This document shows, in pieces, positions 1-37,339 of a stretch of DNA of 37,339 nucleotides; the first letter of the stretch is position 1; every line of letters starts with the position of its first letter. This DNA is from a virus (lineage: Duplodnaviria; Heunggongvirae; Uroviricota; Caudoviricetes): the IMG/VR virus record IMGVR_UViG_2585427777_000002, positions 1 through 37,339 of that record; one strand, written 5' to 3'. Position numbers and translations under genes: made by a program. The notes under the pieces were generated by a model. The model had not been told where the DNA came from. It did no database searches and saw nothing but the letters and a program-made list of their open reading frames with translations.

Positions 1-9
1 AATCATTCC

Positions 10-46
10 CACTCAATTATTTACGATAACCATAACCAATTGAGTG
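10..46. repeat. inverted repeat CACTCAATT-N19-AATTGAGTG just beyond the spanin genes
   Basis: Perfect 9-bp arms read at 10..18 and 38..46; function unknown. Confidence 0.4.
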
Positions 47-127
47 ATAACATTTTTCCAAATCTCAATTTTTCCCGTACCGTTTTATATACCGTCACCG
101 GAAATCAGTACCGTGAAAAATGCCATG

Positions 128-610
128 CTATCTGGTCAGGGTGTCGTACTGTTTTTCGCAGACTCTTCCGGCTTCGGATGCCCGGTCAGCATACTCTGCC
201 AGTTGTCTATTTCTCTCGAGAGATTTGCTGAACACGTCGGCAAGCAAAACTCCGGTGTCTGCGGCTGACGACCCAGCGCCGACAATGGCGTTATAGTGCC
301 TGAGCTGCTCACGGATGGCAACGAGCTGTTGCTGCAACCGGCCAGCGCGAGCGGCAGCATCAAGAGCATCATTGCGCGCCTGGTCGATCCTCTGCTGCGC
401 TTCACGTTCATTGATCGATTTCTCCTGTTCGTAGTGCTGACGAACTATCTCATCTTCAGCTTTGCGGTCTTCCTTCGCCTGCGCATACCCGGCATCGTAC
501 TGACGACTGCCGTGTGCATTCCAGGCTACAACTCCTGATATGACCAGAACAGCAAGCATCGCCATGATAACCAACTGTTTCCAATATGCTTTTGCGAATG
601 ACCAGATCAT
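128..610 (-). CDS. Rz-like i-spanin (inner-membrane spanin)
   Basis: 160 aa; N-terminal TM helix, then charged coiled-coil-like region rich in Q/E/R/A; last gene of the lysis cassette; start overlaps the endolysin stop (607..610). Confidence 0.75.
136..411 (-). CDS. Rz1-like o-spanin lipoprotein, embedded out of frame within Rz
   Basis: Signal peptide [13 protein letters not shown] with lipobox LAGC, Pro/Ser-rich mature part; wholly inside the Rz ORF in another frame as in lambda Rz/Rz1; true start may be the internal MML at about 372. Confidence 0.65.
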   Translation of the reverse strand: MNVKRSRGSTRRAMMLLMLPLALAGCSNSSLPSVSSSGTITPLSALGRQPQTPEFCLPTCSANLSREIDNWQSMLTGHPKPEESAKNSTTP

Positions 611-1236
611 ACAGCCAGCACCTTACTGGCAGTGACGTACCGCGCGCGCCGGTCGTCGATGCCGTTCCGGCCACCATTGATAATCAGAGTTACACGTGCA
701 ATATCGCCGGTATACTTCATGCATCCTTTGCTGGCGAAGAACCACGCCGCGCTACGAGCCGCATATTCGTCCTGCGCCAGCAGTTCAGGGCTCTCCAGCA
801 GGTCAATCTTCAGACCGTTTCCGCAATCACGATAGTTATTCAAACCGGTAATCTGGATAAGTCCGCGCCCTCGGTAATTCCAGCCATCACCAGGGGCATT
901 GTTCCCCATGCGTTTGCTGTATACCAGATTTGCGATCGCGCGCTGGCGCTCAAGTGGCAATGGTGGTTCACCAGCACGGCGCCCCAGTGCATTAGCCTGT
1001 CCTTGGGTGAGGCGTCCAGTCCTGACAAAGCTCGCCAGTCCGGTAACGCTGTAGTTGAAATTCTCCTGCAACCTGGTGAAGCCACCAGACTCATGCCCGA
1101 CATGAGCAATAAACATTGCCTGATCTTCGGGCTTGCTGATACCAAACTCTTTCATCGCAGAAGTGATATGCGAGAACCAGCGTGCGGCCAGCGCCTCGCT
1201 GATACTAGCAGCTCGCTGGAATTGTTTAATCTCCAT
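607..1236 (-). CDS. endolysin, glycoside hydrolase family 19 (chitinase-like) type
   Basis: Start taken at [11 protein letters not shown] (ATG 1234..1236, GAGG upstream); motifs [12 protein letters not shown] and GRGLIQITG typical of GH19-type phage endolysins; sits between holin and spanins. Confidence 0.85.
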
Positions 1237-1534
1237 GTTTAGACCTCGATACTTTGAAAATTTGAACGACGTTACCGCGCGTTTTAATAACCGCAGCAAG
1301 CATGACAGCGTTGATAATGACCTCAGATAAATCAGCTACCATTGGCGTACGAAACCAGATTGCATAGGCGACACGAACAGGAATACTTGCCGCAGCAACA
1401 ATCAGGAAATAAGCAAGCCACCCACCCCATCTTCGGTGTTGGGATCCGTTACGCCGGAATGTAACAACGCGAACTGCAATGCCAGTACAAATAACTGCAT
1501 TGGTGATAAGCAAAAAAAGCTCATGAGTTACCAT
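1226..1534 (-). CDS. small membrane protein, holin or antiholin-like
   Basis: 102 aa with about three hydrophobic segments; sits between holin and endolysin. Confidence 0.5.
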
Positions 1535-1937
1535 CGTCTTTTCTCCCCGGAATTAAGTCGCGTGGATTATCGGAGCGGTGATAGAGCCATATTCCAATAC
1601 GCACTGCTACAATCGCTGACACGAATGCACCAGCAGAGAAGACAACCCCTTTCTCGAAAGAATCCTGCGTAATGGTGGGGATTAGACTGGCTATGCCTAT
1701 AAGAATTGATGCTGTTGGTTTGTAAAAGAGAAGACCACAAAGAAAGCTGAGTATCGACAAGAGTACACGACGACGAACAGGATACTCTACAGCAGAGGTA
1801 ACAAAAATTACCGAACCAGAGAGTGAACCCAATGCAACTTCAGGTGGAACACCAGCAAGTACCGATACAAGCGAACACGCACTAAGGTATTGATTTAAAG
1901 AAAAACTTGTAAATTGCAATGACATAAAAGTCACCAT
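1521..1937 (-). CDS. putative holin
   Basis: ORF 1521..1946; hydrophobic segments; two nearby ATGs (1935..1937 and 1923..1925, the latter with GGTGA upstream); first gene of the lysis cassette. Confidence 0.55.
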   Translation of the reverse strand: MVTFMSLQFTSFSLNQYLSACSLVSVLAGVPPEVALGSLSGSVIFVTSAVEYPVRRRVLLSILSFLCGLLFYKPTASILIGIASLIPTITQDSFEKGVVFSAGAFVSAIVAVRIGIWLYHRSDNPRDLIPGRKDDGNS

Positions 1938-1986
1938 TTTTATCAATCAAACACAAATTCAATTCATGAATTCACCGCCTCAATTA

Positions 1987-35258: not shown

Positions 35259-35307
35259 CCACCACCGCGGCGCCACGCGCGCCGCACTGCAACCAAGAGA
35301 GGTATTT

Positions 35308-35556
35308 ATGAAAGGTGCATTAGGTAAGAAGGAACTCCTGGCGGTGGTGCCACTGTCATGGAGCACTATCGACCGTATGGAGCGCGCAGGGGAATTTCCT
35401 AAACGCTGGTATATCACCGATAAACGCTGCGCATGGAACCGTGATGAAGTTGAGCGTTGGCTTGATGAACGTCAGGCAGCAAGCCCGGCAGAGTTCCAGG
35501 GTAAAAAACCTCCTGTTCAGCAACGTGTATATCGTCCTGTGAGCAACGCGGCATGA
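35308..35556 (+). CDS. AlpA-family HTH regulator/excisionase-like protein
   Basis: 82 aa; LLAVVPLSWSTIDRMERAGEFPKRWYI...WNRDEVERWL matches the AlpA/Xis pattern; GAGAGG RBS. Confidence 0.7.
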   Translation: MKGALGKKELLAVVPLSWSTIDRMERAGEFPKRWYITDKRCAWNRDEVERWLDERQAASPAEFQGKKPPVQQRVYRPVSNAA

Positions 35557-35665
35557 GTGTGCTGCTAAGGCACTGGAGCAAATGGTCAGGATGGTACTTA
35601 TTCCTGGCCTCTGTTTCAGCATGGCTTTATCTGCTGGCATTAATTTTCAGAGAGGGTTGGATTAA

Positions 35666-35965
35666 GTGAGAAAGTTAAGCCGACTTGAAAAATATCACAT
35701 GAACAAGGTTTCAATGCGCAGCCCTTCAAAGGTTGTTGCCGTTACTCCTGCGGCGATAGAGATCGAAAAACGCGCGATTGAAAGAGAGAAAAAAGGGCAG
35801 TTCCGCATTGCCGCCCACCTTTGGCTTCAGTGTATGGATGTTGCTTCTGGTGATGTTGAACGTGCAAGGATCGCGGTTCGCAGGGACCAATGTATCACAA
35901 AAGGTAACGGCCTTCGCCGTGGCGACTATAGCGGCATAGGATGTTGTGGGGTGGTTTATGACTAA
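35666..35965 (+). CDS. PerC-family-like small regulator (tentative), start uncertain
   Basis: Motif EREKKGQFRIAAHLWLQCM resembles the PerC/Pch family pattern as recalled; ORF opens with GTG, internal ATG at 35699. Confidence 0.4.
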   Translation: MRKLSRLEKYHMNKVSMRSPSKVVAVTPAAIEIEKRAIEREKKGQFRIAAHLWLQCMDVASGDVERARIAVRRDQCITKGNGLRRGDYSGIGCCGVVYD

Positions 35966-36608
35966 GAAATACACACTAATCTATGCAGATCCACCCTGGG
36001 CATACCGGGACAAAGCCACAGATGGTAATCGCGGTGCCGGTTTTAAATATCCGGTTATGAGTGTGCTGGATATCTGCCGCCTTCCTGTGTGGGATTTGGC
36101 CGGTGAAAACTGTCTGTTGGCCATGTGGTGGGTGCCAACACAACCACTCGAAGCACTAAAAGTTGTTGAAGCCTGGGGATTCCGTCTGATGACCATGAAG
36201 GGCTTCACGTGGATAAAATGTGGTAGTCGACAACCAGATAAACTGGTTATGGGGATGGGACACATGACTCGCGCCAACAGTGAAGATTGCCTGTTTGCGG
36301 TAAAGGGAAAACTACCTCCGCGCATTAATGCAGGTATCGTTCAGTCATTTACCGCACCGCGGCTTGAGCATTCAAGAAAACCAGATGTCGTTCGTGAAAA
36401 ACTTGTGCAATTGTTAGGCGATGTTTCTCGCATTGAACTGTTCGCCCGCCAGTCGTCTCATGGCTTCGATGTTTGGGGTAATCAGTGCGAAGACCCGGCA
36501 GTGCAACTACACCCTGGATACGCATTGGATATTGCCAGATTAACAAATGCATTCAGCAATGCTCCGCTGTCACCAACAGACAACCAGGGGCGGGAGCGTG
36601 CAGCATGA
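35958..36608 (+). CDS. MT-A70-family N6-adenine DNA methyltransferase
   Basis: IYADPPWAY (DPPW catalytic motif) at the N-terminus; ATG 35958. Confidence 0.85.
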   Translation: MTKKYTLIYADPPWAYRDKATDGNRGAGFKYPVMSVLDICRLPVWDLAGENCLLAMWWVPTQPLEALKVVEAWGFRLMTMKGFTWIKCGSRQPDKLVMGMGHMTRANSEDCLFAVKGKLPPRINAGIVQSFTAPRLEHSRKPDVVREKLVQLLGDVSRIELFARQSSHGFDVWGNQCEDPAVQLHPGYALDIARLTNAFSNAPLSPTDNQGRERAA

Positions 36609-36799
36609 ACCGGGCATCACCAGCAGATTTAAGGAAATGCCTTGAAACTGCAAACATGCTTGCACACAGCGGGATCAGGTTTGTTCCAATTCCCGCTGTC
36701 ACTGATGCTGAATTTGCAACACTGTCAGCAATATTCGCAGATAAAATTGAATCACTGGCAGCAGAAGCCGAGATGGAAGAAAATCAGCAGAACTATTAA
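36605..36799 (+). CDS. hypothetical small protein
   Basis: 64 aa from ATG 36605, overlapping the methyltransferase stop as ATGA. Confidence 0.45.
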   Translation: MNRASPADLRKCLETANMLAHSGIRFVPIPAVTDAEFATLSAIFADKIESLAAEAEMEENQQNY

Positions 36800-36802
36800 A
36801 CG

Positions 36803-37339
36803 TTATTCCCCCGCCATCCACTTCTCAAACTTCGACGGGGAGAACGGAATCAGATCCGTATGCTCCCCGTCAATCCATGAATCAATCATATCGGCCCACT
36901 GCTGCAACATGTAGGCGCGCTGTCTGGCGTATTCCGCTTTGTTATATACGGCGCGCACACCTTTCTGCTCATGTGCCAGAGCCTTTTCAATCCAGTCTGA
37001 AGGATAACCAGCCTCATGCAACAACGTACTGGCTGTACGGCGCATATCATGTACAGTGAAGTCCTGAATATGCTCACCATCTTCATTTATTATTTTCACC
37101 GTTCTGTCGATCAGAGAGTTCAGCGCGGCATTAGATAATGGCTTCCGGAAATTGTAACGACCAGGAACCAGATATTCACTTCCACCAGCGCACATCTGCA
37201 ACCCGACCAATATATCCTGAACCTGTTTAGGCAGGTAAATAACATGCGCCCGGCTTCCCTTCATGCGGTCTGAAGGAATTGTCCATGTCCATTTTTTAAA
37301 ATCTATTTCATCCCACGTTGCATTGGTGAATTCGCCCTT
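36803..37339 (-). CDS. tyrosine recombinase/integrase, C-terminal catalytic part (5' end lies beyond the window)
   Basis: Catalytic-domain motifs HDMRRTASTLL and VRAVYNKAEY (tyrosine); reading frame stays open to the window edge. Confidence 0.85.
   Translation of the reverse strand, partial: KGEFTNATWDEIDFKKWTWTIPSDRMKGSRAHVIYLPKQVQDILVGLQMCAGGSEYLVPGRYNFRKPLSNAALNSLIDRTVKIINEDGEHIQDFTVHDMRRTASTLLHEAGYPSDWIEKALAHEQKGVRAVYNKAEYARQRAYMLQQWADMIDSWIDGEHTDLIPFSPSKFEKWMAGE

Follow-up and report, generated by a model that had tools for sequence, protein, structure and literature searches.

INTRODUCTION

Epsilon15 (NC_004775), the type species of Uetakevirus, phiV10, TL-2011b (NC_019445) and vB_EcoP_ZX5 (ZX5) are temperate podoviruses related to the prophage described here, which occupies a 37,339-nucleotide (nt) stretch of DNA (IMG/VR record IMGVR_UViG_2585427777_000002, positions 1 to 37,339; the whole stretch is called the window). 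A short-tailed virion and a viable temperate life cycle were shown for ZX5; its overexpressed repressor and Bro-N antirepressor drive the choice between the lysogenic and the lytic pathway, and its prophage is inducible by mitomycin C (PMC9782041). The same work reports the attachment (att) core ATTGAGTGGGAATGATT at the 3′ end of guaA for ZX5, phiV10 and epsilon15. A 2022 review places epsilon15 among the podoviruses that have ejection proteins of the gp14/15/16 type, matching synteny and a T7-like core stack (PMC8954989), and the RefSeq notes on epsilon15 (NC_004775) already connect two of its proteins by HHpred, gp11 with T7 tail tubular protein A and gp15 with a lytic transglycosylase. The tail of phage LME-1 was described as resembling that of T7 in structure but not in sequence (PMC12407071).

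A first-pass annotation of the window, made from the letters of the sequence, had proposed a mosaic in which a T7-like virion module is placed under lambdoid-style lysogeny control. All gene classes that it listed are present, and its interpretation is supported with the refinements given below. A T7-type tail and ejection module is combined here with a lambda-like temperate early region that lacks a phage RNA polymerase. The mosaic is real, and it is an organization that has already been published. We are highly confident that the window is a near-complete temperate podovirus prophage of Escherichia coli, belonging to the epsilon15/phiV10/TL-2011b lineage (Uetakevirus type).

RESULTS

Collinearity with the epsilon15 group

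In megablast searches of phage genomes TL-2011b matched 93% of window positions 12001-37000 at 97.2% identity. HEMP4, ZX5, PAS61, phiv142-3, the O157 typing phages 9 and 10, and phiV10 gave 97-98% identity over 47-79% of the same segment, and epsilon15 gave 77.5% identity over 32% of it. The left 12 kb was patchier (44% coverage and 94% identity to TL-2011b). Comparison of all translated TL-2011b genes with the window yielded a collinear map in reverse orientation, mostly with 91-100% protein identity. The comparison with epsilon15-like phages that the first-pass annotation had suggested was also run with epsilon15 itself, whose proteins matched the window gene by gene in collinear order at 33-94% amino acid identity. 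The organization seen in the window is the one that defines this group, and by nucleotide identity and collinearity the window is of the epsilon15-like, Uetakevirus type.

The window shares with TL-2011b, phiV10, ZX5, phiv142-3 and HEMP4 a nucleotide identity of 96-98% across the early region and the terminase, head, tail and ejection genes, as well as the gene order, the att core, the tRNA-Arg gene and an almost identical repressor. It differs from this group in the C-terminus of the tailspike, in a 267-aa (amino acid) acyltransferase that stands in place of Oac, in its antirepressor island and in a shorter nin-like region without a regulator of the gp20 type. Compared with TL-2011b, it also lacks the capsid staple gene gp10, has an intact Xis-like open reading frame (ORF) and carries an amber codon in the portal gene. 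Epsilon15 has the same map, including the lysis cassette, the integrase, Xis, the repressor/cro layout and the site of the LexA box; its terminase, portal, adaptor, nozzle and gp14 proteins are 77-94% identical to those of the window, its gp13 protein 63%. It differs in the capsid protein, which is only 43% identical, in its ejection proteins (gp15, gp16 and gp17 versus proteins of 902 and 1006 aa), in having no lambda P, in its RecE/RecT, for which tblastn found nothing in the window at E ≤ 1e-3, and in carrying O-antigen polymerase conversion genes.

An exact copy of the att core lies at the end distal to the integrase gene (Table 1). At the right end the P4-type tyrosine integrase gene is interrupted at codon 239, and about 0.9 kb of the prophage and the second att site lie outside the window. 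The integrase named in the first-pass annotation is thus present (PF00589) with only its C-terminal 177 residues inside the window. The gene guaA itself also lies outside; the related prophage of E. coli EC0026B sits between guaA and yfgI. The same portal segment was found in approximately 518 of 5426 complete E. coli genomes, and about one complete E. coli genome in ten carries a related prophage. Over window positions 9000-29000 the closest of the 5,426 genomes was 98.2% identical.

Such a mosaic might also be produced artificially if adjacent or nested prophages, or a mis-assembly, had joined a podovirus late region to a lambdoid early region. Consistent with this, lambda P, Ea22, RecT and the antirepressors match many Shiga toxin (Stx)-converting lambdoid phages, and the window is partly patchy relative to any single record. 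However, from the att core through int the window is collinear with the complete genomes of isolated phages (TL-2011b and epsilon15), and one att core lies exactly at the window end. Moreover, the genomes of the group measure 39-45 kb, which agrees with a window of 37.3 kb that is short of only part of int and the second att site. We regard a joining artefact as extremely improbable.

Portal, adaptor and nozzle

The window proteins were compared with T7 proteins by BLASTP, phmmer and tblastn. Outside the SLT domain these pairwise comparisons detected nothing significant, therefore the resemblance to T7 was tested, and is claimed here, at the level of profiles and folds only. Diverse homologues for the family alignments were taken from a representative library.

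The portal protein matched PF12236 (E 1.5e-186). T7 gp8 matches the same Pfam family, and the PHROG matches were reciprocal across families.

The 823-aa nozzle protein had no matching Pfam family. Its closest match in the Protein Data Bank (PDB) was 8ck1_A, the nozzle of the Cobetia marina phage Carin-1 (E 1e-217). When an alignment of 69 diverse representatives of the family was compared with T7 gp12 by hhalign, residues 314-432 aligned to residues 350-466 with an E-value of 8.6e-5; the same region also matched PDB chain 23sh_T, which is labelled 'nozzle gp13'. The AlphaFold model of the protein (predicted local distance difference test score, pLDDT, 93.8) was searched with Foldseek. It matched Autographiviridae nozzles, including four independent structures of T7 gp12, over approximately 790 residues with E-values of 1e-22 to 1e-24 and template modelling (TM) scores of 0.50-0.54. 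The TM score was 0.91 for Carin-1 and 0.66 for the Legionella phage LME-1, and only 0.29 for the P22 gp10 tail hub. Carin-1 (PDB 8CK1) and LME-1 (PDB 9EFK) have the closest solved tails; these phages have other hosts, and the comparison with them covers tail proteins only. In the representative library the nozzle family comprised 18,288 clusters at 50% identity (E ≤ 0.001).

The 201-aa adaptor gave weaker profile signals. T7 gp11 belongs to PF17212 (Tube), which the adaptor did not match with HMMER; among 37 diverse adaptors the best E-value was 0.084, in two members. T7 gp11 was not among the matches when the adaptor alignment was searched as a profile against the PDB, and hhalign of the adaptor family against T7 gp11 gave a borderline E-value of 0.05, which we did not count as independent evidence. 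The AlphaFold model (pLDDT 87) matched the T7 gp11 chain 7box_M in Foldseek with an E-value of 1e-6 and TM scores of 0.59-0.61. It also matched the adaptors of Carin-1 (TM 0.83) and LME-1 (TM 0.68), and tail tubular protein A of KP32. In the structural alignments to T7 gp11 and gp12 sequence identity was 11-15%. Judged from the models, gp11 and gp12 are recognizable in the window only through fold and a weak profile signal.

The first-pass annotation had named profile searches as the test of its likeness claims. In these the similarities to gp8 and gp14 held in Pfam (PF12236 and PF24072). The similarity to gp12 was weakly supported by hhalign and strongly by fold; Pfam and the pairwise comparisons did not detect it. 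The similarity to gp11 failed in searches with hidden Markov model profiles and stood by its fold match to 7box_M.

Ejection proteins and gene order

The 154-aa protein encoded next to the nozzle belongs to a PHROG family shared with T7 gp13. In hhalign its family (33 members) matched T7 gp13 with a probability of 93.7% and an E-value of 1.9e-7, with control pairs at noise level. The 191-aa protein scored 33.7 bits to PF24072 against a curated cutoff of 27, and T7 gp14 matches this family as well.

The SLT-domain internal protein of the first-pass annotation was confirmed as the 902-aa protein, with PF01464 at residues 263-342. In BLASTP, residues 224-354 of this protein aligned to residues 13-142 of T7 gp16 with 31% identity. 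In hhalign its family gave no signal with T7 gp15, gp16 or gp12, and the protein corresponds to T7 gp15 by position only. The family is itself mosaic, with a conserved N-terminus, the SLT domain and a variable C-terminus.

The 1006-aa protein belongs to the same PHROG family as T7 gp16 (phrog_342), to which T7 gp16 scored 1354.7 bits. The match of the 1006-aa protein spans profile positions 200-1225; because it starts at position 200, the protein corresponds to gp16 minus the N-terminal transglycosylase. The location of the SLT domain is the reverse of that in T7, where it forms the N-terminus of gp16: in the window it is on the protein in the gp15 position and the gp16 homologue lacks it. Sequence searches of the PDB found nothing for the 191-aa and 1006-aa proteins, and only SLT enzymes for the 902-aa protein. 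The set of ejection proteins varies in the group, with two in the window and TL-2011b and three in epsilon15 and EC0026B.

The order portal, head genes, adaptor, nozzle, gp13-like, gp14-like, SLT protein, gp16-like protein and tailspike is the order of T7. Family or fold matches were thus obtained in T7 order for gp8, gp11, gp12, gp13, gp14 and gp16, in agreement with the claimed likeness and order; the gp13 and gp16 homologues extend the list of the first-pass annotation. Counterparts of T7 virion genes 8 and 11-16 are in order, that of gene 15 by its place in the row. More than 40 divergent loci in IMG/VR have the same block of adaptor, nozzle, ~155-aa, ~170-aa and large proteins.

Head genes, terminase and the missing RNA polymerase

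The major capsid protein is of the epsilon15 type (gp7 family) and is accompanied by a Bbp16-like cement protein and a prohead protease. Capsid and protease are of the epsilon15/BPP-1 type, not of the T7 type, and the set of capsid, protease, cement protein and terminase is epsilon15/BPP-1-like or P22/Sf6-like, not T7-like. No T7 terminase Pfam domain matched the terminase subunits. As the first-pass annotation had stated, the terminase genes (26185-28250) precede the portal gene (23072-24751) on the minus strand.

The stated absence of a phage RNA polymerase gene was also borne out. In tblastn of the window the best match to T7 gp1 had an E-value of 0.3 over 52 aa. All ORFs longer than 250 aa were otherwise assigned, and none was left that is large enough to encode an RNA polymerase.

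These results bear on the possibility that the window belongs to the T7 family proper as a temperate member (an Autographiviridae-like prophage), in which the RNA polymerase and the T7-type replication genes were lost or displaced. The virion genes indeed run collinearly with genes 8-17 of T7, and they have families (Pfam or PHROG for gp8, gp13, gp14, gp16 and the SLT domain) or folds (gp11, gp12) in common with them. However, there is no trace of an RNA polymerase, and the T7 DNA polymerase and primase-helicase are lacking as well. The capsid protein belongs to PF20911 (GP7) and not to the Gp10A-like family of T7 (PF21703), TerL lacks the T7 terminase domains, a head protease and a cement protein are found instead of the gp9 scaffold, and the terminase genes stand before the portal gene and not downstream of the fibre gene. 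The nearest solved nozzles are those of Carin-1 and LME-1 and not that of T7 (TM ~0.5). Finally, the layout without an RNA polymerase gene is shared by the viable relatives TL-2011b, ZX5, phiV10 and epsilon15. Because these isolated phages have it, nothing was lost in this copy. Membership in the T7 family seems to us very unlikely, and the assignment to the epsilon15 lineage is retained.

Early region

The early region is built around two divergent operons. The repressor operon leads to the recombination genes, xis and int, and the cro-like operon leads through the replication genes toward the terminase. In the order of its immunity, recombination, int and replication genes the region is lambda-like. 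The divergent repressor genes (a helix-turn-helix, HTH, repressor and a cro-like gene), the RecE-like nuclease with RecT, and the excisionase of the first-pass annotation were all identified, the last as an Xis-like gene. The Xis-like ORF is intact in the window (82 aa); the TL-2011b record has an ORF of only 36 aa. The recombination operon (33108..36799) is 96-100% identical to that of TL-2011b, and the repressor is 98.5% identical in amino acid sequence to TL-2011b gp10. The control region that separates the repressor from the cro-like gene measures 154 bp; a 13-nt motif occurs in it three times (32253-32313), and it has a promoter-like site.

Lambda, P22 and the Stx phages likewise have a divergent repressor/cro switch, a leftward recombination-xis-int operon and a rightward operon of replication and nin-like genes. 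The window also shares with lambdoid phages the lambda P homologue, Ead/Ea22, P22-type and Bro-N antirepressors and the Rz spanin. It differs from them in several respects. The repressor matched only HTH families in Pfam and did not match Peptidase_S24; a CI-type repressor with a LexA-like (S24) autocleavage domain was not found. The gene described earlier as O-like encodes an initiator with a DnaT domain (PF17948), which in Pfam matched DnaT and had one sub-threshold chance match, and did not match a lambda O family. The neighbouring gene was correctly called lambda P-like (PF06992). No N- or Q-type antiterminator was recognized among the proteins scanned. The virion is unrelated to those of lambdoid phages, as indicated by the poor fit of P22 gp10 to the nozzle. 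In summary, the term 'lambdoid control' fits the layout only.

Antirepressors and induction

A near-consensus LexA (SOS) box, CTGTATAAATATACAG, is predicted upstream of the operon that comprises the gp19-like gene and the Bro-N antirepressor gene. In TL-2011b, epsilon15 and the EC0026B prophage a LexA box occupies the corresponding intergenic site; the spacer is AT-rich and variable. The window has four CTGT-N8-ACAG sites where 0.54 are expected, more than in any of 100 shuffled sequences. In the other three sites (21050, 25592 and 26945) the spacer is GC-rich, and these sites are unlikely to function.

SOS induction of the prophage probably proceeds through a LexA-controlled antirepressor and not through cleavage of the repressor. 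RecA-mediated cleavage is unlikely because the repressor has no Peptidase_S24 match. The epsilon15-like phage SPC32H reportedly has a LexA-repressed antirepressor, in work attributed to Kim and Ryu (2013).

One island between the tailspike and the ejection genes holds three genes of the antirepressor type, each from a different family (Bro-N, AntA and P22_AR_N).

Peculiarities of this copy

The portal gene contains an in-frame TAG at codon 104, where TL-2011b and EC0026B have GAG; the gene is otherwise 99% conserved. No perfect match to the 101-nt segment with the TAG was found among the 518 complete E. coli genomes that carry the portal segment. The amber codon is either a private inactivating mutation or a sequencing error.

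The second peculiarity is upstream of terS. Epsilon15 (gp49), TL-2011b (gp20) and also EC0026B have a small regulator gene there, of which no homologue was found in the window. The ORF at 28328-28930 joins the N-terminus of Ead/Ea22 to a gene of 70 aa which in strain 90-3040 stands before terS; from its sequence this ORF looks like a deletion fusion. The junction of Ea22 to terS is contiguous in no phage record.

A third gene, the gp10 capsid staple gene of epsilon15, TL-2011b and EC0026B, is cleanly absent between window positions 20196 and 20188. We considered this absence as a sign of decay and rejected that reading, as many E. coli prophages carry the junction without the staple gene at 100% identity. 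Since it recurs so often elsewhere, the absence of gp10 is a natural variant, and the gene is a variable and not a defining feature of the group. Capsid stapling is therefore optional in this lineage.

If the sequence is correct, this copy is probably defective and would form no infectious particles, because of the GAG-to-TAG change in the portal gene and the missing regulator gene before terS. It could be argued, on the contrary, that the prophage is fully functional, the TAG being an error of sequencing or assembly and the short nin-like region a harmless variant. Apart from the portal gene, the structural genes are undamaged and share 91-100% identity with those of TL-2011b, capsids without the staple are common in other genomes, the sequence directly upstream of terS is common to approximately 100 genomes, and the TAG is a single-base change present in no other genome, as expected of an error. 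On the other hand, the stop codon is unambiguous in the sequence as given, and neither the Ea22-to-terS junction, absent from phage records, nor the loss of a regulator that epsilon15, TL-2011b and EC0026B all possess fits a fully functional prophage. We consider full function unlikely.

Lysis, conversion, tailspike and tRNA genes

The coordinates of all features are collected in Table 1. The lysis cassette (128..1946) gave the Pfam matches Phage_holin_8 and Glyco_hydro_19; its proteins are 86-94% identical to TL-2011b gp50-53 and 82-87% to epsilon15 gp23-26. The gene of the 267-aa acyltransferase occupies the locus where phiV10 and TL-2011b have their O-acetyltransferase. The protein had a weak Hexapep match below the cutoff and is 100% identical to the EC0026B copy; its sequence and location make it a probable lysogenic-conversion cargo. 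The N-terminal ~165 aa of the tailspike are common to the tailspikes of TL-2011b and epsilon15 (67-72% identity), and the receptor-binding part differs from that of TL-2011b. The parts for host range (tailspike) and conversion (acyltransferase) may have been exchanged together. The tRNA-Arg gene is located between the terminase and the portal genes. An ORF of the other strand (25406-25657), for which TL-2011b has an annotated protein, overlaps it with its 3′ end.

Table 1. Features of the prophage in window coordinates, with the family matches and comparisons on which the names are based
Feature	Position	Strand	Evidence and remarks
att core ATTGAGTGGGAATGATT, integrase-distal prophage end	1..17	-	Exact match to attP/attB core of ZX5, phiV10 and epsilon15
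Rz-like spanin	128-610	-	Lysis cassette
GH19 endolysin	607-1236	-	Pfam Glyco_hydro_19; lysis cassette
Holin	1226-1534	-	Lysis cassette
Membrane protein/holin	1521-1946	-	Lysis cassette
Acyltransferase, 267 aa	2106..2909	+	Low GC (35%; 0.348); identical EC0026B gene named 'acyltransferase' by RefSeq (PGAP)
Tailspike, 923 aa (T7 gp17 position)	3015..5786	-	PHROG tail spike families; C-terminal Peptidase_S74 chaperone domain
LexA (SOS) box CTGTATAAATATACAG, near-consensus, predicted	5945..5960	.	Upstream of gp19-like/Bro-N operon
gp19-like gene, 84 aa	5982-6236	+	84% identity to epsilon15 gp19
Bro-N antirepressor	6508-7245	+	Pfam Bro-N; PHROG 'anti-repressor Ant'
Hypothetical gene, accessory island	7474-8109	+	
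AntA antirepressor, accessory island	8253-8903	-	Pfam AntA, E 8e-28; PHROG Ant
P22_AR_N antirepressor, truncated to 132 aa	9337-9735	+	Pfam P22_AR_N, E 2e-43; PHROG Ant
Hypothetical gene, accessory island	9796-10323	+	
Internal virion (ejection) protein, 1006 aa, T7 gp16 homologue without SLT domain	10345..13365	-	phrog_342, E 2.3e-208
Internal virion protein, 902 aa, with SLT lytic transglycosylase domain (T7 gp15 position)	13365..16073	-	PF01464 SLT
gp14-like internal virion protein, 191 aa	16073..16648	-	PF24072 T7_gp14, E 4.4e-8
gp13-like internal virion protein, 154 aa	16648..17112	-	phrog_308, common to T7 gp13
Tail nozzle, 823 aa (T7 gp12/tail tubular B type)	17112..19583	-	PDB 8ck1_A; AlphaFold (AF2) model and Foldseek; hhalign
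Tail adaptor, 201 aa (T7 gp11/tail tubular A type)	19583..20188	-	PDB 8ck1_E, E 4e-26; AF2 model and Foldseek
Head protein, 111 aa	20245-20580	-	
Bbp16-like cement protein	20591-21028	-	PF21190 Bbp16, E 4e-47
Major capsid protein, epsilon15 type	21080-22072	-	PF20911 GP7, E 1.5e-149
Prohead protease	22081-22782	-	phrog_458
Bbp19-like protein	22779-23075	-	Phage_Bbp19, E 3e-17
Portal (T7 gp8 family)	23072..24751	-	PF12236; in-frame TAG at 24440-24442 (codon 104)
tRNA-Arg (TCT)	25400..25476	+	ARAGORN; annotated in O157 typing phages 9/10 and EC0026B
Terminase large subunit	26185-27660	-	PHROG terminase family; 94% identity to epsilon15 gp2
Terminase small subunit	27657-28250	-	PF03592 Terminase_2; 77% identity to epsilon15 gp1
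Ead/Ea22 fusion ORF, 200 aa	28328-28930	-	Pfam; shortened nin-like region
Hypothetical gene, nin-like region	28927-29541	-	
DUF1064	29603-29947	-	Pfam
Lambda P-like helicase loader	30065-30841	-	PF06992 Phage_lambda_P, E 1.7e-55
DnaT-domain replication initiator	30813-31661	-	PF17948 DnaT, E 1e-18; phrog_2509 replication initiation protein
cro-like gene, 76 aa	31986-32216	-	76% identity to epsilon15 gp39
Two-HTH repressor, 194 aa	32371-32955	+	HTH_3, PHROG repressor families; 42% identity to epsilon15 gp38 repressor
Two small genes of leftward-type operon (33108..36799)	Ahead of 33559	+	
RecE-like PD-(D/E)XK nuclease	33559-34380	+	Pfam, PHROG
RecT	34377-35258	+	Pfam, PHROG
Xis-like gene, 82 aa	35308-35556	+	phrog_66; 85% identity to epsilon15 gp33
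PerC-like activator	35714-35965	+	Pfam/PHROG
MT-A70 methyltransferase	35946-36608	+	Pfam/PHROG
DUF1382	36605-36799	+	Pfam/PHROG
Tyrosine integrase, C-terminal 177 aa, runs off window end	36806..37339	-	PF00589; 98.9% identity to TL-2011b integrase residues 239-415

DISCUSSION

The gene families suggest a life cycle in which the prophage would be integrated and excised at the att core by the tyrosine integrase and the Xis-like protein, a mechanism modelled on the known families and on ZX5. Lysogeny would be maintained by the two-HTH repressor, transcribed divergently from the cro-like gene across the 154-bp repeat region with its putative operators. Upon SOS induction the gp19-like/Bro-N operon behind the LexA box would be derepressed to supply the antirepressor. 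By analogy with their families, the DnaT-domain initiator and the lambda P-type loader would recruit the host DnaB for replication, and RecE/RecT would serve recombination. All transcription would be carried out by the host RNA polymerase. The TerS/TerL pair would fill an epsilon15-type capsid of the HK97 fold, made with the protease and the cement protein. The predicted virion would have a dodecameric T7-type portal, a gp11-like adaptor, a gp12-like nozzle, tailspikes, and an internal core of the gp13-like, gp14-like, SLT and gp16-like proteins. As in T7 and epsilon15, the core proteins would be ejected, cut the peptidoglycan and build a channel across the envelope.

Several points weigh against this interpretation as a whole. 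The flanks and the second att site are not seen, and the source genome is missing from the 5,426 complete E. coli genomes. The likeness of the adaptor to T7 gp11 escaped HMMER, was borderline in hhalign and comes from a predicted structure, and hhalign did not reveal homology between the 902-aa protein and T7 gp15. Operator function of the 13-nt repeats and LexA control of the antirepressor are what we infer from sequence. With regard to the defect, the TAG in the portal gene might stem from a sequencing error, and the missing regulator gene may not be essential.

As a discovery the mosaic carries little weight, since epsilon15, phiV10 and many relatives from E. coli and Salmonella already have such an organization. 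The main use of this work is a clean annotation in which each correspondence to T7 is graded by the method that supports it (Pfam, PHROG, hhalign or fold). The nozzle family is far more diverse than the named epsilon15-like phages, and this type of tail extends far wider than the T7 family. The induction circuit of the prophage is probably based on an antirepressor and LexA rather than on cleavage of a CI repressor.

We tentatively suggest, as one possibility, that the portal amber codon is genuine and that, together with the loss of the regulator, it marks a prophage in early domestication which has lost virion assembly. If so, the domesticated prophage would still provide its host with repressor immunity, with an O-antigen-modifying acyltransferase and with RecET recombination, and its SOS-controlled antirepressors might cross-induce other resident prophages.

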